56,189 nucleotides of DNA from the IMG/VR virus record IMGVR_UViG_3300027779_000014; one strand, 5' to 3'. Source of the stretch: an uncultured virus (IMG/VR IMGVR_UViG_3300027779_000014). Taxonomy: Duplodnaviria > Heunggongvirae > Uroviricota > Caudoviricetes. Positions 3,291 to 50,290 of this stretch are shown one piece after another. The position numbers and the translations under genes are program-made. Numbering within the stretch: the stretch's first letter is position 1; the number at the start of each line of letters is the position of its first letter. The notes beneath the pieces are model-generated. The model had not been told where the DNA came from and did not search any database. It saw only the letters and a list, made by a program, of their open reading frames with translations.

Positions 3291-4034
3291 TTATTTCGGT
3301 ATCTTAATGAAAAAGATCCAGTATGTGCCATGTTGGGCACTTACGCTTTTCTTTGTTCTTGTACCGTGTAAAGGTGTTTCTGGAAATTGTCTTAACATTT
3401 CTGAAACGGAGATATGTAGATCGCACCACTTGAACACTAATGTTCCGTGTGGTTTCAATACTCTCCAAATTTCTTTGAATCCTCTTTGGACATCGTTTTT
3501 CCAATCGTGCCCTAGTTTCCCGTATTTCTGTAACATTATTCCGGCTCTAGCTTCTAGAATGTGCGGAATGTCCCACATTACATGGTGAAATGTTTCGTCT
3601 TTGAATACCATATCGCGATAATCGCCAATAATGTCCGGTTCAACCGACCATCCTGGTTGTAATGCAATTGTCCCTGGTAATTCTTCTCGAATATCCATGT
3701 AAATTGCATCAGTGTGTTTTTTATCGAACCATATTGATCGGCCTCCACAACATGCGTCTAGCAGCGTTTTGCCGTTTAGGTTTACTTGTATTCTCCAATA
3801 CCCCTTTTCTAATCCTGTTTTATGTACGCGCCCTTTTCCCTTTAGAGTTTGGAGTGCGTTTCTTACTTTATGTTGCCATTCAAGTGATTCTTTCCAACCA
3901 GTAGTGCAAATTACTTCATCGCATATGTTTGGAAATGCTTCTTGAACATAATCATATATCACTTCAATATGATGTAATCCATCAGGGACACATTTCATAT
4001 TGGTTTGTGTTAATTCTTTTTGTAAGCTAGTCAT
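3291..4034 (-). CDS. SAM-dependent (DNA) methyltransferase with N-terminal winged-helix-like domain
   Basis: LLDACCGGRSIWFDK motif I, WDIPH catalytic-like motif, WRVLKPHG; N-terminal WQHKVRNALQTLK. Confidence 0.75.
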   Translation of the reverse strand: MTSLQKELTQTNMKCVPDGLHHIEVIYDYVQEAFPNICDEVICTTGWKESLEWQHKVRNALQTLKGKGRVHKTGLEKGYWRIQVNLNGKTLLDACCGGRSIWFDKKHTDAIYMDIREELPGTIALQPGWSVEPDIIGDYRDMVFKDETFHHVMWDIPHILEARAGIMLQKYGKLGHDWKNDVQRGFKEIWRVLKPHGTLVFKWCDLHISVSEMLRQFPETPLHGTRTKKSVSAQHGTYWIFFIKIPK

Positions 4035-17640: not shown

Positions 17641-18465
17641 CTATTCAAGTTTCTCGAACAGGGCTGAAATTTGTCTTATACCATTTGTATCGATTTCGCT
17701 ATGAAGCGACATCAACATAGTATCTAACAGATCTCTTTTGCTGGTAATTAGTTTCTTGTTGTGTAAATTAATCAGAACATTAGGGAGGCCAATTAAGCCT
17801 TCACTTGTTTCTGACATGGTTACCATTTCGAGATACCAAGTCCAGTTTAGTAATCCAGTACCAATTTGGTATGGTAGTAGTGAATCTGCAATTTCAAACA
17901 CCTCTGTAAGATCTGTTTCTTCCACTACGGGTTCTTCCACTACGGTTTCTTCCACTACGGTTTCTTCCACTACGAGTTCTTCCACTACGGTTTCTTCCAC
18001 TACGGTTTCTTCCACTACGGTTTCTTCCACTACGGGTTCTTCCACTACGGTTTCTTCCACTACGGTTTCTTCCACTACGGTTTCTTCCACTACGGTTTCT
18101 TCCACTAATGCTTTTTCATAAATCTTTAGGTTTTCACCCTCATTCTGTTGATTAAGTTCTTCAAGGGGAAAGATTTCTTTTGGGTTCCAATGAAATGAAT
18201 AGAGTTTTTCTATTCCATGCTCTTCCATAATATCGTTTTTTAGATGGTCCATAATTTCTCCCCATGCTTCCTTTATCTTTTCATCAAGTTTTTCAGGTTT
18301 AATTGTGCTACTTTGTGTAAGTAATTCCAATGTGCGATCTATGAGGCCCTTTTTTAGACCCTCTTCAATATCGCACCCATATTCTTCCAATGCGTGTAGC
18401 ATACGGAAGTACGGCCTTAATTCTTTTATCATTGCCAATTGCTTGGCATTGCGTTCTGTAGTCAT
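17641..18465 (-). CDS. acidic protein with (VVEET)n repeat
   Basis: Motif start; 13 pentapeptide repeats. Confidence 0.8.
   Translation of the reverse strand: MTTERNAKQLAMIKELRPYFRMLHALEEYGCDIEEGLKKGLIDRTLELLTQSSTIKPEKLDEKIKEAWGEIMDHLKNDIMEEHGIEKLYSFHWNPKEIFPLEELNQQNEGENLKIYEKALVEETVVEETVVEETVVEETVVEEPVVEETVVEETVVEETVVEELVVEETVVEETVVEEPVVEETDLTEVFEIADSLLPYQIGTGLLNWTWYLEMVTMSETSEGLIGLPNVLINLHNKKLITSKRDLLDTMLMSLHSEIDTNGIRQISALFEKLE
17915..18107. repeat. 15-bp coding tandem repeat, ~13 copies
   Basis: gtttcttccactacg unit. Confidence 0.95.
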
Positions 18466-27696: not shown

Positions 27697-28119
27697 TCAC
27701 TTGTAAATTATTTTATTAAGTGCAGAAAGCGGAACAATTTTTTCAACAAATAATTTGGAATTTTTGTGTTCCCATGGCTGAAAATTGTATTGTTCTGTTT
27801 CTCTGTCCCATATTCCTACGCTTAGATTTAGCCCTAGTTTGACACAGGCGTTTACTGTCCCGAATAGGGCAGAAGTAAGGCCTGATGCGTAAAGAGCTAC
27901 TTGTAAATCGTGAAATATGGTTGGATCTTCCTCATAAATTGATTGAATCCTTTTTGTTGCTTTAGCATAGTAAGAATCCGGATTTTTTGGATCTAACTTG
28001 TTAGGATGAACGGGGTCCTTGACCTTACTCTCGTCGAAAACGAGATAGTCAATTGGTGTTCCGTCATTCTTGTTTGGTTGATGCCCTGGTCGGGGCATTA
28101 ACAATATGTGCAATGTCAT
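27697..28119 (-). CDS. hypothetical Rossmann-like protein (possibly CARF/Csx3-like)
   Basis: ACTTACC start at 28119; LYASGLTSAL...WDRETEQY. Confidence 0.6.
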   Translation of the reverse strand: MTLHILLMPRPGHQPNKNDGTPIDYLVFDESKVKDPVHPNKLDPKNPDSYYAKATKRIQSIYEEDPTIFHDLQVALYASGLTSALFGTVNACVKLGLNLSVGIWDRETEQYNFQPWEHKNSKLFVEKIVPLSALNKIIYK

Positions 28120-28202
28120 GGTAAGTAGGCACATAGGTAGTGGTGTGCCTTCCACTGCCCCGAAGGGTCTTGCTTTTTGCCAATTAAGGCTAACGAATTT
28201 GA

Positions 28203-29249
28203 TTATTCGGCTTCCAGTACAAGGTAGTCAACATTTGACTTTTCTCTTACTTTCTGGGTCATATTCTTGGAGATTATCTCAGAAAGGTGTTGTTCCCCTT
28301 TCTTGAGCAATTCTGCTGCGGCTTCTTGATTTATTTTTATGTTGTTTGAGAGCCATTGCTTCTCCGATTTGTCCCAGTCACCTGGATTGCTTGATAAATC
28401 GTTTTTGCAAACATCTGATTCGATGCGTGGTTGCTGTTTTTTCCGATAAAATCTTGTTCTTCTTTGAGGAGGGGCGTGCGAAAGTGATCTTTTAACCCTA
28501 TTAGAATGTTTAACATTTCCTTCTAGGATTGATTCACAAAGTTCACACTTGCCTCTACGGGTGCCCATGATTTCAGAATTCCTTTTCCTGATGTGGCAAC
28601 CTTTCTCTTTAGTAACTTTTTTCAAATGCAGTTTTTCGTCATTCAAACGAGCCTTTGCTCTGCGTGTACGAGAAGATTCTAATTTCTTGGACCTTCTCTG
28701 CATAGCATCTACCCAATTATAGGGTACTTGCGGCGTTCTCGTAGAAGTAGCCATGGCTTCCGCTTTGGGCGGGGCTTCGGATTTGACAACCATCGTGGTT
28801 GCTGTGAATCGTACTGGCTTGAATCTTCCATCGAGTTTCCCTTGTTTATTTGTAGGGATCTCTTCGTTCCATTCTACTTTGCATTTTGCCAATTGTATAA
28901 CTTTTTCAGTCACATGACCGTCATTAGATGCGTCATAAAACAAATTCAATGCATAGTTAATTTTTTGTACTAACACATTCGGTGTCAGCATCTTAGCATT
29001 TTTATTCAGTATTACTACATCTTCTTCTTCGGTAGTGAGGTTATCCAAGTATGGCTTTATTATCGAAATCAATATTTTTAGGTAAGATGCTCTTCTTAGA
29101 GCACTTTTGCCTGCACCGGAATTACGCTTACTTATTTTCATAGCGCGTTTCCTTATGGCGGCTTCTCTTTCAGTTAGAGAAGAGATGCGGCCATTTTGGC
29201 TTGCAATTTCGTTCATTATTGGTTCATTATTCGTGCATTTATCTTGCAT
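28203..29249 (-). CDS. basic hypothetical protein (348 aa)
   Basis: Motif start; K/R-rich. Confidence 0.75.
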   Translation of the reverse strand: MQDKCTNNEPIMNEIASQNGRISSLTEREAAIRKRAMKISKRNSGAGKSALRRASYLKILISIIKPYLDNLTTEEEDVVILNKNAKMLTPNVLVQKINYALNLFYDASNDGHVTEKVIQLAKCKVEWNEEIPTNKQGKLDGRFKPVRFTATTMVVKSEAPPKAEAMATSTRTPQVPYNWVDAMQRRSKKLESSRTRRAKARLNDEKLHLKKVTKEKGCHIRKRNSEIMGTRRGKCELCESILEGNVKHSNRVKRSLSHAPPQRRTRFYRKKQQPRIESDVCKNDLSSNPGDWDKSEKQWLSNNIKINQEAAAELLKKGEQHLSEIISKNMTQKVREKSNVDYLVLEAE

Positions 29250-29684
29250 GGTCAGTTACGGGATTTGTTCACTCGCCACCTATCCCGTATCGGTGGGTCA
29301 TTGTGTCTAGTTGCCCCGAAGGGGCGTAAACCTCGTTCATTATTCACTTGGCCATTCTTTTTTCTAAAAACATTTTAAGTTCATTAGATGGTCCCCAACT
29401 TCCTAACACTTGACGAATAGTCAAGGGAAAGTTGTAACCTATGGCGGCTGATAAATCTAGATCCGTAATATTGTAGACTGTTGGTATTCCGGACATGGAA
29501 GCGAACTTGACTTTTATTTCGTCATTTTCCTTCCATGCAGTTCCGTAACCGGTCTTTATTATTAGTTTTCTTTCGTTCATTGGTTCATTATTCGTGCGTT
29601 TATCTTGCATGGTCAGTTACGGGATTTGTTCACTCGCCACCTATCCCGTATCGGTGGGTCATTGTGTCTAGTTGCCCCGAAGGG
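29207..29684. repeat. ~115-bp direct repeat (29207-29323 and 29571-29684) covering leader structure, motif and first codons
   Basis: Near-identical sequence; both genes begin MQDK.TNNEP. Confidence 0.95.
29344..29610 (-). CDS. hypothetical protein
   Basis: Motif-started ORF. Confidence 0.7.
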   Translation of the reverse strand: MQDKRTNNEPMNERKLIIKTGYGTAWKENDEIKVKFASMSGIPTVYNITDLDLSAAIGYNFPLTIRQVLGSWGPSNELKMFLEKRMAK

Positions 29685-29685
29685 C

Positions 29686-31419
29686 TCAACGCTGCTGTTT
29701 TCGAGCAGGCTTGCGTGTTGGTTTTTTGCTTTGCTTGGCTCGGTGATCGTAAGCATCCTTGGTTAGAGGCACTGCTTTTACTCCGATGACTGTTCTGCCA
29801 CCGATTGTCACCATTGCCGGAGTCAATTGAGACCTATTTCTCCCAATTTTTCCGTTTAAGCCGACTTTTTGCTCTCCTTTAGAACCATTGCTCTTTCCAG
29901 ATAGTTGGGCGTTCTCAAAGCCGAAAGGCCAGAATACGCTATTATCCTTTAATTGTTGCAATGCTTTTACAGTGGACTTATCCTTTTTATTTGCTTTATC
30001 GCCTATTTTTAGTAGGTAAGCGATGTTGGATAATACCCCAGTTGGCTCATAGCCGTGTTGGGCTGTCCTAGACTCAGAAGCTAAGATATTCATAATCGAA
30101 GCTGCTTTGCCTTGTCCTAAAACTTGTTGAAAGTAAAGTTCTGCCAACTTGGCTCCCTTCTTAATATCAGATACATCCCGTGGTTCAAGAGTTTTTCGTC
30201 CTCTCTTATCACAAGACTTTTCTGCTTTCGAACCTCTCATGAAGATTGAACTGTGAACTTCTATGCTATAACCTAGTTTTTGTAGAACTTTGGTTTTCAT
30301 TTCTAGCAGTTGAGACACAATTTCCCAATCAAGGAAGCGAGCGTTCTTGCTCGGATTTCGAGCGAGTTTCAGTGTACCCAAGTTCGGGTCATCTCGATCT
30401 ATTCCGTGATTGATTTGTAAATCTTTAAGGTTTCCAGTCTTAGGTAGTATGGTTTGTCCATACGGAGTTGCAAGTCTGATTAGGTTAAACCTACTCAGTG
30501 CGTTGACGCGATATACCAATATGTCTGCGTACTTTTGATTCTCTTGGCTCAGGTATTGATCCAAGTTAATGCCAAGTAATTCTTGTGCAGTTGGGTTTCT
30601 CTCAGTTATACGAGGTACGCCTTTGCCGACTTTGAACATACCAGGGGTATATTGTGGCGTTACATCATAAATAATCATAGACGCGAATTCTTTGTCGTCT
30701 GTTTCTGCGATGTAGCGCACACTTGTGCCCGCTGGTGCTAGTAACTGGAGGTCTTTTACTAATGAATCAGCATCATCTCGGCTGATTAATCCTGATGTTT
30801 TGGCTGTCTTGCCGTCATCAGATAGTAAATTGGACATCAAGGCATGAACGCTAGGATCTATTCCTATATTACCGAATGACATGGAACCTGACAATAAATT
30901 GCCAGCCACCATATTTCGGCCTTCTTGCGTTGTAGCTCCTTGTGTATCTGCTGCCTCTATAAGAGCGTGGGAAACCCACACTTCTTTATTAGGGACATTA
31001 AATGTTCCATTAGGACCTGTTTTCTCAGTTCTTTCATTTTCTTCTAGGTCTGCAAAGACTTGTTTCTTTGATTGTGCGTGCTCTTTCCCATACAATAAAA
31101 TCTCAACTTTAGAATCTCCTATAAAGAAAGTTCCGTCATTTTCTGATTTTGCATGTTCAAAAGATCTTACACACTCGATAAACTGGTCTGTTGCGTCGTT
31201 TTGCTTTGCGTTGTTTTTTATTTCTTGTGAAATAATTTTTAATGTATCTACGATAGGGCTTTTAGCATTCTTTGGCGTTGCATTTGCAATTTGCTCAAAT
31301 TGAGGCAATTTGCTAATAGCAGCCAAATCTGCTTTTAGACCCTTTAGGGTAAATTCAGTCATTATTTCATCTTTTGTCATATCAGCGTAGATTTCTACGC
31401 TTGCATTTTTCATGTGCAT
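29686..31419 (-). CDS. large hypothetical protein (577 aa)
   Basis: ACTTACC start; long ORF with no family I recognise. Confidence 0.85.
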   Translation of the reverse strand: MHMKNASVEIYADMTKDEIMTEFTLKGLKADLAAISKLPQFEQIANATPKNAKSPIVDTLKIISQEIKNNAKQNDATDQFIECVRSFEHAKSENDGTFFIGDSKVEILLYGKEHAQSKKQVFADLEENERTEKTGPNGTFNVPNKEVWVSHALIEAADTQGATTQEGRNMVAGNLLSGSMSFGNIGIDPSVHALMSNLLSDDGKTAKTSGLISRDDADSLVKDLQLLAPAGTSVRYIAETDDKEFASMIIYDVTPQYTPGMFKVGKGVPRITERNPTAQELLGINLDQYLSQENQKYADILVYRVNALSRFNLIRLATPYGQTILPKTGNLKDLQINHGIDRDDPNLGTLKLARNPSKNARFLDWEIVSQLLEMKTKVLQKLGYSIEVHSSIFMRGSKAEKSCDKRGRKTLEPRDVSDIKKGAKLAELYFQQVLGQGKAASIMNILASESRTAQHGYEPTGVLSNIAYLLKIGDKANKKDKSTVKALQQLKDNSVFWPFGFENAQLSGKSNGSKGEQKVGLNGKIGRNRSQLTPAMVTIGGRTVIGVKAVPLTKDAYDHRAKQSKKPTRKPARKQQR

Positions 31420-31439
31420 GGTAAGTATTTATGATAAGT

Positions 31440-31660
31440 AAGCAAGATTGTGGCATACTTGCTCTCTGCGGTGTCATTGAGAGTCCACCATCCTTTTGTC
31501 CTAAGTCGAGGGTTAGCACGACCAGACTTGGGATCCTTTGTTCGTCAAAGTTTTTTCTCGGCATGTTCGCTGAACCGCAGTAAAAATTGCTGCTTAGATG
31601 CTTCACCAAACCAATTATAGGTTCACCCTTTAATGGTCTGACTTATTCCACACAATATTT
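31440..31660 (-). ncRNA. putative structured ncRNA (~220 nt)
   Basis: Bounded by motif variants; stems agcaag/cttgct, tcctaagtc/gacttggga, ctgcgg/ccgcag. Confidence 0.45.
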
Positions 31661-31683
31661 TATGATAAGTATTTATGGTCAGT

Positions 31684-32100
31684 AGTTCCGTTGAGTAGTG
31701 GAAATTGAGCTTATCATTGACGCCGACCTTTTACAGTCGTCACTCAGTCATTTTCAATCTGCAGATTGTCCATGACTTGCCTTTGAATTTTTACGGCTCA
31801 TAGGTAGTAACCGGATTGATGATTTTTAGTCATCTATCCATTTCTACCCCTGTTGCTCTTTCGAGCATTTTGTGGCCTTTCGGCCTAATGGCATCATTTT
31901 ATCCTCTGGTAGAGGACTGGACTCAATTATCGGATTTCCATTCATCCGACCATTATTTATTGTTGTTGCTCTTTCGAGCGTTGCAAGGTTTCGCTTGCTC
32001 CGAACACCTCTGCAGGGTCGGTGTAGTTATGCTGTATCAACACTCCTCGAACTCTGATCGAGGACTTGTCACACACTCTTGGCTGTGTGAGCGTTTTTTA
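31684..32100 (-). ncRNA. putative structured ncRNA (~415 nt)
   Basis: Bounded by motifs; minus-strand GAAA tetraloop hairpins GCTC-GAAA-GAGC (x2) and GGCC-GAAA-GGCC; further stems. Confidence 0.6.
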
Positions 32101-32375
32101 CATGGTAAGTGCAGTTTGCGCGTACTGCTAGACGCATTATTTTTGGTGTTTGGCAATCTAAGTGTTGCCCATACTGTATATTTGCGTTTTAGTCCATATT
32201 ATCGCGGCCTAAATATACCGACCAAATAATAGTCTGCATATTGATGAATCCCTTTTTCTTTTCTTCTGGGTATTCAACCTCAATCATCTGCCTAATTTGC
32301 TTTCTGGAAAAATTTCGCATGGTAAGTGCAGTTTTGCGCGTACTGCTAGACGCATTATTTTTGGTGTTTGGCAAT
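32101..32375. repeat. ~57-bp direct repeat (32101-32157, 32318-32375) with pseudoknot and ACTTACC motif
   Basis: catggtaagtgcagttt(t)gcgcgtactgctagacgcattatttttggtgtttggcaat. Confidence 0.95.
32189..32320 (-). CDS. small hypothetical protein
   Basis: ACTTACC start at 32320. Confidence 0.55.
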   Translation of the reverse strand: MRNFSRKQIRQMIEVEYPEEKKKGFINMQTIIWSVYLGRDNMD

Positions 32376-32405
32376 TAGGGTTTGCCCAACCCATAAGATG
32401 CGGAT

Positions 32406-32510
32406 TTAGATTCTGCAATTCATTGTGCCGCACTCGCAGATTTTCCATTCTGGGTGCATTGGCAAATCATCATCGTATTCTATTCCGCATGAACATGTAT
32501 GTGTGTACAT
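32406..32510 (-). CDS. small zinc-ribbon protein (34 aa)
   Basis: ACTTACC start; CSCG...CECG. Confidence 0.6.
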   Translation of the reverse strand: MYTHTCSCGIEYDDDLPMHPEWKICECGTMNCRI

Positions 32511-32521
32511 GGTAAGTAAGT

Positions 32522-32848
32522 GTTCCAGGGCAAATTCTTTGGTCTGAAATGAGTGGGGGTCAGCACACTCATTCTCGTTGCCGATCATTACATCTCTGGA
32601 ACGGTAAGTGCCGCCACCTCCAATTAAGGAGGGCGTTAAGCCCGCATTCTCATCTGTCTGGTATAAGAGAGGAGTCCTAGGCGGATTCTGGCGACGGTAA
32701 GTGAGCCTTTTATAGATAATTACCGCGTTCTTGCTCAGGATTCCGCTTGGTAATCATAGACCTCTCATTTGACCGTAGAGAGGCTGGTGAAGGATCCACA
32801 CCCAATTCCCTCTTGCGTTATTAGGAGGGAGGTTTGGTAGATATGGAT
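32522..32848 (-). ncRNA. three motif-delimited small structured RNAs (32522-32602, 32610-32695, 32703-32848)
   Basis: Each begins right after ACTTACC with a paired 5' end (GTTCCAG/CTGGAAC; GTCGCCA/TGGCGGC; ATCCATATC/GGTGTGGAT). Confidence 0.55.
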
Positions 32849-33033
32849 GGTAAGTGCAGTTTGTGGTCATTTTCACTGCGAGACCAGGGTCAACACTGCT
32901 CTTAACTACCGAATTCATCGAGACGGCGCGTGTGCTTGTGTTGAAAATGGGATTTGGTCACTCGCCACCTTATCCCATATCAGGTGGGTCATAGTTCGTA
33001 ATTCAAGAATAAAGAGCTTGTATTTACTGCGGA

Positions 33034-33282
33034 TTAAGAAAACCTTCGATTCATTATTGCTTCTTGAATCAAATATTCTACATCTTTTTCGGCAGTCTTT
33101 AGTGCTTCGCGAGTATCTTTCAATTGTCTCAAGGCATTCCGAAATTTATTTTCGGAAATTTGGCCATTCATAAACAATCGCATTAACTGTTGCTCTAACT
33201 GCGGTTTATTCTTGTTGTTGGTCCTAACTTTACGGTGAGGTACAACCGACCCATCTCTGGGATTTGCCTGCTTATTTTGCAT
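33034..33282 (-). CDS. hypothetical coiled-coil protein
   Basis: ACTTACC motif 3 nt after tRNA CCA; start at 33282. Confidence 0.7.
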   Translation of the reverse strand: MQNKQANPRDGSVVPHRKVRTNNKNKPQLEQQLMRLFMNGQISENKFRNALRQLKDTREALKTAEKDVEYLIQEAIMNRRFS

Positions 33283-33292
33283 GGTAAGTATT

Positions 33293-33369
33293 TGGCGGGT
33301 CATACAGGGTTCGAACCTGTGGCCTTCCGGTTAAGAGCCGGACGCTCTACCTGACTAAGCTAATGACCC
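33293..33369 (-). tRNA. tRNA-Lys(CTT), CCA encoded
   Basis: GGGTCAT/ATGACCC acceptor stem, TCCGG-CTCTTAA-CCGGA anticodon arm, GGTTCGAACCC T arm, GCCA end. Confidence 0.95.
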
Positions 33370-33374
33370 GTTGT

Positions 33375-34098
33375 TCCCTCTACTGAGGGATAGTCGTATT
33401 ACCTTTTTTTAGAGTGGAAAGGTTCCACTTTGCTTTTTTTTATGTTAAGTACCGGCCTAAGCCGGTTATTTTTTCTAACATATCGCACATTTTTGGTTCA
33501 GCACCGTTATTGAACTTCCTCGAACCCACGCCACCCCGAAGGGTTTCCTAGCGTGAAATTCGCGCAAACATCCCTACCCTCGCCCTAAGCGTTAGGTGTA
33601 GTTCATAGCCCAATTTCTGTTCACCACCTTATCTCAAAGAGAAAGATGGTGTGTTGCATATCTAACGAGAGTAAGCGTCCACTGGAAATCCTGTTATTCA
33701 ACTTGAAGTCACCTTAAGGTAATCCTCTTGTTGCAGGGCCAATGTAGCCGTCAGTCTTTCGATTATTCTCTCCATACCGCTGCTGTTGTGTGATATTTCT
33801 GCATTAAGGTACATCTGCTCTATGATGTACCCCGTGTGACTTACTGTTTCCAGATATACGAGCCTCGGGAAAACTATCCTAAGGTGCATCTCGTATTAGG
33901 CTGGTTTGCTGCCAGCCCGTTTGTCATTTAACTTCTACAGGACAAGAAGACGCTAGTCTTCAAAGCATTTGTGGATCCTGTAGGTTTTCAGCCGGTAGAG
34001 TTTGCATCCCTGGTTTTCTCGACGCTTTGCAGGCATCGCTATTCAGGGAACTCCGTGAAGCCCCTTGAGGCAACCGGCTTGTGAGGATTGTCTCCTCA
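33375..34098 (-). ncRNA. putative large structured ncRNA (~700 nt) upstream of tRNA
   Basis: No credible ORF; dense inverted repeats (ggtacatc/gatgtacc, ctacagga/tcctgtag, agccggt/accggct, tacgag/ctcgta, gaagac/gtcttc, accggc/gccggt). Strand inferred from context. Confidence 0.5.
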
Positions 34099-34579
34099 TT
34101 ACATAGGCCACCGGCCCTCTAGGAGAGGGTCTGCGGCTAATATTTGGTAAGTTTTGGACCTGTTAAGGCCTCTTACATTATATAGGCCACCGGCTCTCTA
34201 GGAGAGAGACAGTTTATACTATACAATATGTATTCTAGTACCTATGCCACCGGCATTCATAAAGAAAGCCCTAAAGAGCAATTCTCAAGCTACTGCTTGG
34301 GATCACTCTGGGGTTTTTTGAGCCAGGAGCATCTGTTCCTAGGAACATTATCCTCTGGCAGATCTGTTCCTAGGAACATAATCTTAATGAGTTGGTGGTA
34401 TAAAGCACTTATTCTAGTACCTATGCCACCGGCATTCATAAAGAAAGCCCTAAAGAGCAATTCTCAAGCTACTGCTTGGATCACTCTGGGGTTTTTTGAG
34501 CCAGGAAGATCGTTCCTGGAACATAATTCTTAATGAGTTGGTGGTATAAAGCACTTATTCTAGTACCTATGCCACCGGC
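34097..34579. repeat. Repeat-rich divergent control region: 2x ~35-bp hairpin repeat and 179/146-bp tandem repeat with TGTTCCTAGGAACA palindromes
   Basis: Units at 34097 and 34177; tandem copies start 34231, 34410, 34556; palindromes 34334-34347 and 34365-34378. Confidence 0.9.
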
Positions 34580-34609
34580 TTTTATGATGGGAGCCCCTCT
34601 CCGCAACTC

Positions 34610-35530
34610 ATGAGCGACGCGCTGTCCCTAGGATCTCGGGCTTTCGAGGAATTGTTCTGCGAGTCAGGAGAACCTTCTGGATGTGCCAAGAAAGGAGGGC
34701 AGATAATTTATGAAAATGGGAAATCTGAATGCGCTTTCTGCGGATTAACGACTAAATTCGATTTCGATACATCTCCTACATTCAATAATGATAAAATGGA
34801 AAAGAGGTTCAGTTTAAGCGAAACAGGAGCTAAAAGAGGGAAGAAGCGAGCATTTAACAAATTGTTTGGCGATTCAACATATGTTGCGGCACATGAAGAT
34901 TTTTCAGGAGGCTACAAAGTCACTGACATTGGGCTTGTGAAGAAATTCAAATTGTCTGCTAACGCGGCTGCTGAAACTGAGAGAGTGTTTTATGAGATGC
35001 TGGAGAAGAATTACCAATTAGGAGGCAAGGGGTTGGATGCTGTAGTATATGCTGCTGCATTCCATGGATGTCAATTCGATTACAATTTCGTTCCAATAGA
35101 AAAGATAGTGAGAGACTCTAGTTCTATAAAGAAAGCAAATAGTCTAATCAAAAGAGCTAGGCAAGATGGCATCATTAAACTAGTGCAAAAAGATCCTGTT
35201 GCGATTTTAGAGTCGGCCCTATCAAAGCATGCATCGAGTAATTCTGTTCAAGAATTAGCAATTAAATTCGCAAAGATCTATATTCCTAACTTACGACCAG
35301 ATATTCACGCATCTGGAGCATTATACAAATCTATGAAAATTACGGGAAATAGTTCTGAAAAGAGAATTTCACAGGAAGAAATCGGAAAAAGATTCCATGT
35401 GAGTAGGAAACATGTGGGACAGGGGTATAGAGCAATTAACGAGGCTCTGACGCCTAAATCCAACCCTGGTCATTTGCCAAACATAGGTATTACTGGCGAA
35501 CAGTTGAAACTTTTGAGGGCTTTACGCTAA
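34610..35530 (+). CDS. tfb: TFIIB/TFB-like transcription initiation factor
   Basis: N-terminal Zn ribbon (C...CAFCG), cyclin-like repeats GKGLDAVVYAAAF and RPDIHASGALY, C-terminal ISQEEIGKRFHVS HTH. Confidence 0.75.
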   Translation: MSDALSLGSRAFEELFCESGEPSGCAKKGGQIIYENGKSECAFCGLTTKFDFDTSPTFNNDKMEKRFSLSETGAKRGKKRAFNKLFGDSTYVAAHEDFSGGYKVTDIGLVKKFKLSANAAAETERVFYEMLEKNYQLGGKGLDAVVYAAAFHGCQFDYNFVPIEKIVRDSSSIKKANSLIKRARQDGIIKLVQKDPVAILESALSKHASSNSVQELAIKFAKIYIPNLRPDIHASGALYKSMKITGNSSEKRISQEEIGKRFHVSRKHVGQGYRAINEALTPKSNPGHLPNIGITGEQLKLLRALR

Positions 35531-43406: not shown

Positions 43407-44207
43407 ATGACAATGACTGCATTTCTACCCTTTGACCGTAAACCACAGAAGACCATAGCTTCAATGCTATGTAAATATAGCAATATGGTGGCTAAACCCA
43501 CCACTGGAGCAGAGTGGATGTTCCAGGGTCCCGTCAAAGGAGGCCGAGGTGCTATGATTGTACAGATTGTCGATTTTAGAGACTACATGGTTACTTCTGA
43601 GAGAGAATGGGCAGATGATGTAGGGTGGACTTCTAATTGGGCTATCGCTATCAGCGTATCTCATAAAAGGCGTAGTGACGAAGAATACGCATTCTGGCAC
43701 GCATTTACTTGCGTAATGATGAATGCCTACGAAGGTAATGGCCTGGCATCTAACGAAGTCTGGCTTTCTTCTGATGAAGATGGTTTCCCAACCACTCCAT
43801 TTACAATTGGAGAATTGCTTCCAGATTTAATTTCAAGTGATGCAGAAGATGTGGCGATGAGAGAGGATGAACCGATCATTGAAAGTGAACCTGAATTATT
43901 ACCGCCGCCTCCAAGAATGAGGGCTCAACCTGAACCTGAACCTGAACCTGAACCTGAACCTGAACCTGAACCTGAACCTGAACCTGAAGAAGTTCCAAGG
44001 TTGCGCCTTGTTTCTTTTGATGAAGAGGATGAAGCAGAAGAAGAGGATGAAGCAGAAGAAGAGGATGAAGCAGAAGAAGAGGATGAAGCAGAAGAAGAGG
44101 ATGAAGATTCTTGGTGGGAAGAAGAGGACGATGAAGCAGAAGAAGAGGACGATGAAGCAGAAGAGGACGACGAAGAAGAAGTTTCAGATGCTATCACCGA
44201 CTGGTAG
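43407..44207 (+). CDS. protein with (EP)n linker and very acidic tail
   Basis: 6-bp repeat 43927-43989, 18-bp EEEDEA repeats ~44020-44180. Confidence 0.75.
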   Translation: MTMTAFLPFDRKPQKTIASMLCKYSNMVAKPTTGAEWMFQGPVKGGRGAMIVQIVDFRDYMVTSEREWADDVGWTSNWAIAISVSHKRRSDEEYAFWHAFTCVMMNAYEGNGLASNEVWLSSDEDGFPTTPFTIGELLPDLISSDAEDVAMREDEPIIESEPELLPPPPRMRAQPEPEPEPEPEPEPEPEPEPEEVPRLRLVSFDEEDEAEEEDEAEEEDEAEEEDEAEEEDEDSWWEEEDDEAEEEDDEAEEDDEEEVSDAITDW

Positions 44208-49309: not shown

Positions 49310-50290
49310 TTATTCCTCCTCTTCGGTTCTGTATGTCCTTCTGACGATTGAATTGTCGTTTAATTGGTTCGTATGTCTAAGCGTCTCCCATACATAATCT
49401 ATGTGAGAAGTAGGGGAGTTCGACACTTCTAATAATTTTGAAGAAATTTCTTCATATTCGTGAGCCAAAAACACTTCTCTTCCCTTTAAGGCCATACCAA
49501 CCCCATAAATTGTTGGCTGTTGTAAAGCCTTACCAAACAAAAAGTCTGAATCTTGAAATTCATCAGTTAGCCCAATGGCTCCGGCTAAATATAATTGACT
49601 ACGATCTAATACCGCCTTGATTGTACTCCTATTCCAGACTAGACTACCACTCCTAGTATAATTTCTGTTCTCAATCAAGTTTGTGATTATTTGGGATGTC
49701 TTGTAACCTCTAACATGCATTTTTAATATTTCATGTACTACCTTTGCTTCTTCTATGTGGGGAATTAAAGAGCCAGGGTTCAACCTTGTACCTTGGGGGG
49801 TATAGTTGTCATCCATTTTATACCCTAGTGGTGGAACTCCAATCCACCTTCCGCTTCTCCTAGCTCCTTCTAGCCCCATTTTAACTCTAGTAGATATGGT
49901 TTCACGCTCCATTTCAGCGAATGCGCCCATTACCTGAATGAAGAATCTTCCTTGGGCTGTTGAGGTATCTACTCTTTCTTCTGTTGAAATGAAATCACAT
50001 TCCTTGGTTCGAAGGTCGTCTAACCATAGGACCATGTTTCGTAAGTTTCTGTGAATCCTATCTAATTTGTATATTACTACTATACGCCATTCTGTACCTG
50101 CTTTGGACATCATTTCTAGATACCCTGGCCTATGCTCGAATGCTGAACCTGATCCTGTGTCGTGATAGTGACCTACGATTTCATGCCCTTCCAATTCAGC
50201 ATATTGATTACATCTTCTTAGCTGTTCCTCTGGAGAATGTCCGTCTTCCTGGTATTCTGTTGATATTCTAGTATATACTACTGCTTTCAC
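49310..50290 (-). CDS. serine recombinase (resolvase catalytic domain plus recombinase domain)
   Basis: YTRIST, DTGSG, YKLDRIHRN, DTSTAQGRF, AEMERETISTRVKMG, PPLGY. Confidence 0.92.
   Translation of the reverse strand: MKAVVYTRISTEYQEDGHSPEEQLRRCNQYAELEGHEIVGHYHDTGSGSAFEHRPGYLEMMSKAGTEWRIVVIYKLDRIHRNLRNMVLWLDDLRTKECDFISTEERVDTSTAQGRFFIQVMGAFAEMERETISTRVKMGLEGARRSGRWIGVPPLGYKMDDNYTPQGTRLNPGSLIPHIEEAKVVHEILKMHVRGYKTSQIITNLIENRNYTRSGSLVWNRSTIKAVLDRSQLYLAGAIGLTDEFQDSDFLFGKALQQPTIYGVGMALKGREVFLAHEYEEISSKLLEVSNSPTSHIDYVWETLRHTNQLNDNSIVRRTYRTEEEE

Follow-up and report, generated by a model that had tools for sequence, protein, structure and literature searches.

A small H-type pseudoknot element adjoining a gene-start word in a rare lineage of large marine viruses

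Introduction

Can a viral RNA carry, immediately before the start of a gene, a small fold that ends exactly where the start signal begins? This question is raised by a locus of the uncultured virus IMGVR_UViG_3300027779_000014 (Caudoviricetes), of which we analyzed a stretch of 56,189 nucleotides (nt), hereafter called the window. An earlier note on this DNA had described three minus-strand copies of an H-type pseudoknot, at positions 29257-29296, 29618-29657, and 32947-32987, and the quoted sequence is present at all three. To our knowledge, control at the RNA level has hardly been described in archaeal viruses and not at all in the large uncultured marine ones. Here we describe the element as a transcribed RNA structure under selection, the structure of which is well supported and the function of which we infer. 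The motif is new but belongs to a known structural kind, the H-type pseudoknot, and its coupling to a start word is the point of interest.

Results

What does the element consist of, and how many independent examples of it are there? The conserved unit is ∼45 nt long and lies on the minus strand, in three copies in the window; it starts 5 nt before the coordinates first noted, with an invariant ATGAC head. In copy 1 (29257 to 29301, minus strand; 76.5 bits with the covariance model), the head occupies 29297-29301 and is followed by the pseudoknot, in which stem 1 (S1) is CCACC/GGUGG, loop 1 (L1) is GA, stem 2 (S2) is UACGGGAU/AUCCCGUA, the junction is A, and loop 3 (L3) is CGAGUGAACAA. Copy 2 (29618 to 29662, minus strand) is identical in sequence. 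Copy 3 (32947 to 32992, minus strand; 63.4 bits) has an S1 of 6 bp and an S2 of 7 bp, the outermost S2 pair being lost. Since copies 1 and 2 are located inside a 106-nt repeat of 99% identity, they count as one sequence, and the window provides two independent sequences. With the copies found in a metagenome contig (L007) and in a related viral record (G003), the total is five copies with four distinct sequences from three genomes. The crossing order that characterizes the H-type class (5′ arm of S1, 5′ arm of S2, 3′ arm of S1, 3′ arm of S2) is present in all four distinct sequences, with dimensions of 5 to 6 bp for S1, 2 to 3 nt for L1, 7 to 8 bp for S2, 1 to 2 nt for the junction, and 9 to 12 nt for L3. 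The unpaired parts that are invariant in the four variants are the AUGAC head, the GA of L1, the junction A, and GAGU in L3.

Are the two stems maintained when the sequence changes? In a model-based alignment of the four distinct sequences, both stems were kept, with 96.2% of 52 cells paired. Double-sided changes were found at 4 of the 14 pairs, which was equaled by 1 of 500 shuffles; when the 3′ partners were slid by one to three columns as a control, 24 to 51% of the cells were paired and no double change was seen. Both MAFFT and the model shift the 3′ arm of L007 by one column, and the two imperfect S2 cells are that artifact. S1 was absent from the model that aligned the copies, so the S1 counts were not fitted. 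Copy 1 has five Watson-Crick pairs in S1 and eight in S2, copy 3 has six pairs and seven pairs besides the lost terminal one, L007 has five (one of them U.G) and seven, and G003 has five and eight (one of them U.G). Relative to copy 1, S1 differs at two pairs, both in L007: A-U has become C-G, and C-G has become U.G. In S2, C-G became U-A in copy 3, G-C became A-U and A-U became U.G in G003, and a paired 1-nt deletion removed a C-G pair in L007. With three double-changed pairs and a paired deletion, S2 is strongly supported by the sequence comparison.

The C-G to U-A double change in copy 3 had been put forward in the earlier note as compensatory; to this change, which is indeed present, L007 and G003 add three double changes, the paired deletion, and two wobbles. 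Both stems are retained in these two homologs. A second proposal, that copy 3 has a paired insertion (CCACCU/AGGUGG), fared less well: copy 3 does carry two 1-nt insertions, but the extra U-A pair is a C.A in the orthologous G003 copy, so that the insertion does not represent a conserved pair.

The fold had also been claimed for the transcribed minus strand only, and our results agree. Both of the wobbles (in S1 of L007 and in S2 of G003) fit the gene-sense strand only and become A.C mismatches on the antisense strand. A scan for H-type folds (L1 of 1 to 4 nt, junction of 0 to 2 nt, L3 of 2 to 14 nt) returned the proposed fold as the best one for copy 1, with a stacking energy of −25.9 kcal/mol that none of 300 dinucleotide shuffles matched; shuffles as good numbered 0 of 300 for copy 3 and 4 of 300 for L007, and the same scan gave no comparable H-type fold on the antisense of copy 1 and L007. 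An L1 of 2 to 3 nt over 7 to 8 bp and an L3 of 9 to 12 nt over 5 to 6 bp are plausible by stereochemical rules. In such a fold, both stems would be formed together.

Where else does the element occur? In a collection of 5.8 billion proteins, the 577-aa protein encoded upstream of copy 2 has two relatives (54 to 59% identity). As an anchor for further searches, this protein led to no viral locus besides its own and to one metagenome locus, L007, in which the element is located at 3322-3365 and is fused to (A)CTTACC-ATG. A 140-aa protein used in the same way had one relative in the protein collection and gave no new locus. Scanning for word-ATG pairs at gene spacing led to the records G002 and G003. 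G003, a genome of 128,784 bp that has terminal repeats and is rated complete, aligns collinearly with the window at 65 to 81% DNA identity and contains a single copy at 114451-114495 (39.5 bits with the first covariance model and 58.6 bits with the second), fused to (A)CTAATC-ATG. This copy is located behind the orthologous tRNA-Lys and a small gene, as is copy 3, its orthologue; the tRNA-Lys(CUU) of the window (33293 to 33369, minus strand) thus serves as a context marker. No copy was found in G002 (60.9 kb), which uses the word ACTGAAC.

Other searches added nothing. In 22 candidate viral records, the covariance model detected no further copy. Among viral contigs, exact and loose patterns recovered only the virus’s own strain plus four chance loci among six, and the first IMG/VR contig matched was identical to the window; a pattern of the invariant positions gave 15 viral loci, namely, three from the same strain (four matches), the G003 copy, and 11 chance loci. 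The loose pattern hit 79 loci in prokaryote genomes, all of them bacterial chance hits and none with the ATGACC head. Rfam yielded no match to the element, either at the gathering threshold or at E values up to 10 over 29100-34700; only the tRNA and two noise hits came up. The virus lineage carrying the element is a rare one of large marine viruses with archaeal-type genes.

The element is closely tied to a short word at gene starts. The window contains 52 occurrences of ACTGACCATG, every one of them on the minus strand between 338 and 29617, against an expectation of 0.07, and ACTGACC-ATG is a genome-wide gene-start word. In G003, ACTGACC occurs 60 times on one strand (73.7 to 113.9 kb), and in G002, ACTGAAC occurs 69 times on one strand. 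The word opens each of 52 to 60 genes in a block of 30 to 40 kb, inside which the ATG mostly follows the previous stop codon by 7 to 10 nt (6 to 19 nt at most sites). The bases after the word-ATG are biased toward ACA, with an extended consensus of ATG-ACA or ATG-GCA, and no Shine-Dalgarno-like motif is evident at these starts. A sister word, ACTTACC, is used upstream, at 31.4 to 33.3 kb; like the variant ACTAATC, this word is found behind the tRNA-Lys as well as in front of units that have no open reading frame (ORF).

In all cases, the copies are located at or slightly upstream of the block head, and copies 2 and 1 occupy the two most upstream ACTGACC sites. The heptamer adjoining copy 1 (29250 to 29256, minus strand) is followed by the ATG (29247-29249) of a 348-aa gene, and that adjoining copy 2 (29611 to 29617, minus strand) by the ATG (29608-29610) of an 88-aa gene. 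The claim that the pseudoknot ends exactly at ACTGACC in these two copies is accurate, with the ATG directly behind; copy 3 has no heptamer-ATG behind it. Overall, S2 ends 0 or −1 nt from a start word with its ATG in four of the five copies, although the words abutted differ (ACTGACC, ACTTACC, and ACTAATC). Long leaders are found only at the first three genes of the block, with 75, 94, and 83 nt from the previous stop to the ATG.

Is the element bound to particular genes? Copies 1 and 2 form part of a 106-nt leader cassette (repeat family D17) that is present as a direct repeat at 29218-29323 and 29579-29684. The cassette consists of a GC-rich hairpin, an 11-nt spacer, the pseudoknot, ACTGACC, the ATG, and ∼36 nt of coding sequence. 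The hairpin, GCCCC-UUC-GGGGC, is located at 29313-29325 (minus strand), 11 nt upstream of the head of copy 1 and past the stop codon of the 88-aa gene; its equivalent for copy 2 is located at 29674-29686 (minus strand), past the stop codon of the 577-aa gene. The 348-aa gene behind copy 1 is orthologous to a 372-aa gene of L007 (49% identity) from residue 11 only, which indicates that the cassette replaced the 5′ end of the gene and supplied its first ten codons. The leader of the L007 orthologue is of another, hairpin type, and in L007 the element stands behind this gene rather than before it. The genes behind the copies are unrelated, with no alignment between the 88-aa protein of the window and the 86-aa protein of L007. 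In addition, the gene of the 140-aa protein, which is 86% identical between the window and L007, is leaderless in L007 and has an 83-nt leader in the window. The element is portable between genes and independent of their identity.

The leader types themselves appear to be interchangeable, because the window has the pseudoknot cassette where L007 and G003 have a hairpin leader. This leader, located behind the homologue of the 577-aa gene at 2130-2166 in L007 and at ∼112.0 to 112.1 kb in G003, forms a long-range CUAGG...CCUAG hairpin 2 to 6 nt from the word. The third long leader of the window, the 83-nt leader of the 140-aa gene, also holds a GC hairpin and contains a second candidate H-type pseudoknot at 28127-28156 (minus strand; AGUGG-A-AGGCACA-CCACU-ACCUA-UGUGCCU). 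This putative knot is unrelated in sequence to the first and ends exactly at ACTTACC-ATG (ATG at 28119); it was found in a single sequence by its scan score, with 0 of 300 shuffles as good.

Several other explanations for parts of the locus were considered and dropped. All 12 terminator-like sites (GC hairpin with a U tract) are on the plus strand; with none on the sense (minus) strand, a sense-strand intrinsic terminator was set aside. A leader peptide starting at ATGACC would have 10, 25, 4, or >30 codons in differing frames and is not conserved. A partner acting in trans on L3 or the word was dropped because the sense strand holds no complement to either. An origin from a tRNA or attachment site was suggested by the end of the window’s tRNA-Lys, ATGACCCGCCA, which resembles the head of the element; a match with one mismatch is expected by chance, and the G003 tRNA ends with CTAGACCCGCCA, yet its element keeps ATGACCCACC.

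Is the element transcribed? Parts of the stretch are present in 13 RNA runs from seven studies (seawater and other aquatic samples), and we placed the contigs of the four best runs. One contig (29594-31405) covers the 577-aa gene, the hairpin, copy 2, the word, and 16 nt past the ATG, and two others (32559-33180 and 32884-33059) cover copy 3, in each case with no difference in the element. Copy 1 and the second knot are outside every contig listed. Contigs stop at 29233 and at 29594, both inside the 106-nt repeat; this is probably an assembly effect and allows no inference on transcript ends at the element. In run X1, the depth differs widely from contig to contig (0 to 229), as would be expected of RNA rather than of carried-over DNA, although depth is a poor measure here.

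The same libraries contained other features of this region. An 8-nt deletion at 33012, upstream of copy 3, marks a strain variant present in one metatranscriptome contig and in a near-identical IMG/VR record (G001); it leaves the element unaltered. An abundant RNA of ∼400 nt, from 31685 to 32144 and possibly on the minus strand, was seen in all four runs, with a depth of 179 compared to 46 for the neighboring gene (X1); it starts near ACTTACC-ATG-TAA (32103), has no ORF, and is 74% identical to G003 at 114072-114243. A second, very abundant RNA (33485 to beyond 34000; depth of 229 in X1) has neither an ORF nor an Rfam match. Adapter sequence directly adjoins this RNA at 33485 or, in a different run, at 33505, and 33485 is also where the contigs of two runs start, which suggests a discrete RNA end.

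What kind of virus carries the element? Compared with solved structures, the chaperonin of G003 (28242-29627, minus strand) is closest to archaeal thermosomes, of which it is an archaeal-type subunit (E = 1e-67, versus 1e-44 for eukaryotic CCT), its 839-aa Rpb1-domain-5 protein (69544-72063, plus strand) is closest to archaeal Rpo1C/A″, and the sliding clamp of the window is closest to archaeal PCNA. The unresolved “group D” of magroviruses is described, in the portion of the source available, by a thermosome, a resolvase, an RNA polymerase A, and a DNA polymerase (Philosof 2017, PMC5434244). The thermosome and Rpo1C/A″ proteins of G003 and a serine recombinase in the window (49310-50290) correspond to traits given there. 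A family B DNA polymerase (PF00136) was found in neither of the two records, one of which is the complete G003, while 5 of 14 control genomes matched; because none is detected in the complete genome, we did not file the virus under group D, and it stands as unclassified. The alignment leaves G003 at its end (128414) and resumes at 1011, at ∼46.8 to 47.4 kb of the window, so that the window spans the termini or terminal repeat of a genome of ∼129 kb. The available parts of PMC5434244 and PMC11706807 mention no promoter, motif, or start-codon feature. In literature searches, no work was found that joins Poseidoniales with a pseudoknot, and the matches listed for the word were only unrelated papers on animal and human health.

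Other structured or repeated sequences were noted in the window. A conserved structured unit at 32603-32647 (minus strand), AUGCGGGCUUAAC.CCCUCCUUAAUUGGAGGUGGCGGC, is nearly unchanged at ∼98-142 of L007; it ends at ACTTACC, and neither an ATG nor an ORF follows. A 72-nt direct repeat (32101-32171 and 32318-32388; 93% identical), each copy of which ends with ACTGCACTTACC-ATG, gave a weak H-type fold in the scan with a last loop too short to convince. On the plus strand, three copies of a 90-nt repeat (34211-34625), each with GGTGG...ATG...CCACC, stand at the head of the plus-strand genes, with further GCCGGTGGC motifs at 34100-34210; the repeats possibly represent another family of repeated leaders, or else a control region. 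In-frame tandem repeats within ORFs are located at 17870-18162 and 43924-44199 (15-nt units, ∼14 times; 9-, 12-, and 18-nt acidic units rich in Glu/Asp).

Discussion

What might a fold placed in this way do? We tentatively favor, at somewhat less than even confidence, a role in cis on the adjacent start, in which the element would expose the word and the AUG, insulate them, and protect the RNA end. The pseudoknot would be a portable leader or junction module, placed after the GC hairpin that closes the upstream unit, and its 3′ helix would lead directly into the word that opens the next one. Because the knot pairs with itself, the word and AUG of the first cistrons could stay unpaired, with a constant spacing to the end of a rigid helix; the fold may also insulate them from upstream RNA and shield the adjoining RNA end from exonucleases. 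Interior genes would need no knot, because there the word comes directly after the upstream stop codon.

Several observations weigh against this proposal. Copy 3 has no start word behind it, and its extra S1 pair is not conserved. No H-type fold was found in the L007 leaders at 2174 and 4227 or in the window leader at 31419, and in other long leaders, a class that is crudely drawn because small upstream ORFs inflate it, the word is adjoined by a plain hairpin or by no structure; a pseudoknot is thus not required for the head position. The distinct sequences number only four, and S1 shows one double change and one wobble. Finally, RNA ends cannot be mapped from contigs that break at the repeat.

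Among documented viral leader knots, the gene 32 operator of T4 is the nearest. In T4 and RB69, a small H-type pseudoknot occupies the 5′ leader of a viral message and is kept among relatives (PMC535899). The T4 operator consists of a knot of ∼28 nt followed by >40 nt of unstructured RNA with the ribosome site, and it is tied to one gene, the product of which binds it (PMC535899). In the element described here, however, the knot abuts the word, 7 nt from the AUG, and precedes three unrelated genes.

Other known pseudoknots resemble the element in shape. Frameshift knots of the MMTV and SRV-1 type have a 5′ stem of 5 to 6 bp, a first loop of 1 to 2 nt, a second stem of 6 to 8 bp, a junction A, and a long last loop, proportions similar to those found here. 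Retroviral frameshift and readthrough knots are located within coding sequence, 5 to 9 nt past a slippery site or a stop codon, whereas the element is intergenic and precedes a start. A frameshift or readthrough signal was dropped because there is no slippery site and a hairpin stands between the stop codon and the knot. Type III ToxI-like antitoxin RNAs are pseudoknot repeats of ∼36 to 45 nt bounded by a specific short sequence; in contrast, a distance of 361 nt separates copies 1 and 2, and an ORF lies in between. A type III toxin-antitoxin system was dropped because there is no head-to-tail array and PADLOC matched none of 10 neighboring proteins.

Could the element instead belong to the RNA upstream of it? 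If RNAs end or are cut between the word and the AUG, then the hairpin, the pseudoknot, and the 7-nt tail would together make a protected 3′ end, a structural stop, or an insulator. We consider this unlikely but the strongest of the alternatives. The word also delimits the tRNA and apparently non-coding units and may be an RNA boundary rather than a translation signal, and plain hairpins are found 2 to 6 nt from the word in other leaders. An exact abutment would presumably leave a tail too short for 3′ exonucleases. The RNA contig data, in which one contig runs from the 577-aa gene through the hairpin, copy 2, and the word to 16 nt past the ATG, fit a 3′ tail of the upstream unit equally well; however, the contig end at 29594 is inside the repeat and may be an assembly effect. 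Against this alternative, each upstream unit already has a closing structure in the GC hairpin, 11 nt ahead of the element, and what was duplicated in the cassette includes, besides the element, the downstream start and ten codons. A further possibility, on the side of the downstream gene and rather doubtful in our judgment, is that the rigid helix end stacked on the 7-nt word is a docking or positioning module, similar to a device for internal entry, that recruits a ribosome, a virus-specific nuclease, or a polymerase de novo at the first units of the block.

Do the two stems in fact coexist? It is improbable, in our view, that the element folds as one hairpin at a time, either as S2 alone or with the stems alternating as a switch. 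Nested minimum-free-energy folding does give S2 alone (−12.6 and −14.8 kcal/mol, with z scores of −1.1 and −1.9), the covariation of S1 is thin, and a 2-nt L1 across an 8-bp S2 is near the steric limit. The knot is favored only if the loop penalty is below ∼13 kcal/mol, as is usual in pseudoknot energy models. However, S1 is fully complementary in all four variants despite two changes, L1 and the junction are nearly constant in length while both stems vary, and the stems share no nucleotides and need not exclude each other. In addition, the combined stacking of copy 1 was reached by none of the 300 shuffles.

Slightly less probable still is a stand-alone small RNA of ∼52 nt, from AUGAC to the word, that is released and acts in trans or as a protein-binding decoy. 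The ATGAC head fits the consensus that follows the word (A at 81% and C at 62% in the two positions that follow, compared with 10% for all ATGs of the sense strand), the structured unit without an ORF at 32603-32647 likewise runs from an AUG to the word and is shared with L007, and the loops are conserved, as in RNAs that bind proteins or ligands. However, the 7 nt preceding the head differ from the word, the sense strand offers no complement to L3 or the word, and a toxin or defense family was found in none of the 10 neighboring proteins.

A riboswitch, in which a ligand-binding H-type pseudoknot would gate the adjacent start, appears very improbable. The preQ1-I and SAM-II aptamers are knots of 35 to 50 nt with conserved loop bases located directly before the start codon, and the size, topology, conserved loops, and near-start position of the element recall them. 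However, the element has no covariance-model match in Rfam, even at E values up to 10; the downstream genes are mutually unrelated, with no family found and no link to metabolism or to a single pathway; and the start word lies outside the helices and is not sequestered. No more credible is a DNA-level site, whether as protein-binding interleaved inverted repeats or as a promoter for a virus-encoded polymerase subunit: G003 does encode an Rpo1C/A″-like protein and co-evolving half-sites can mimic covariation, but DNA symmetry is lost at the two U.G wobbles, the spacing of half-sites is altered by the paired deletion and insertion, two overlapping palindromes would require two dimers on one site, and no conserved TATA-like box was seen by eye at a fixed distance in the window, L007, and G003 loci.

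What would a cis-acting leader element mean for these viruses? The fold is short and uncatalogued, it is supported by natural mutations, and it is joined to a 7-nt word at the ATG of 52 to 60 genes. The element bears on how this word is read, that is, on whether transcripts start at it, RNA is cut there, or it signals translation. The transfer of the cassette together with the first ten codons shows that expression modules are swapped in these genomes. If the docking possibility were true, later genes would depend on the word alone, directly past the previous stop codon, and an archaeal-type virus would have a start system without Shine-Dalgarno pairing or a classical leader.

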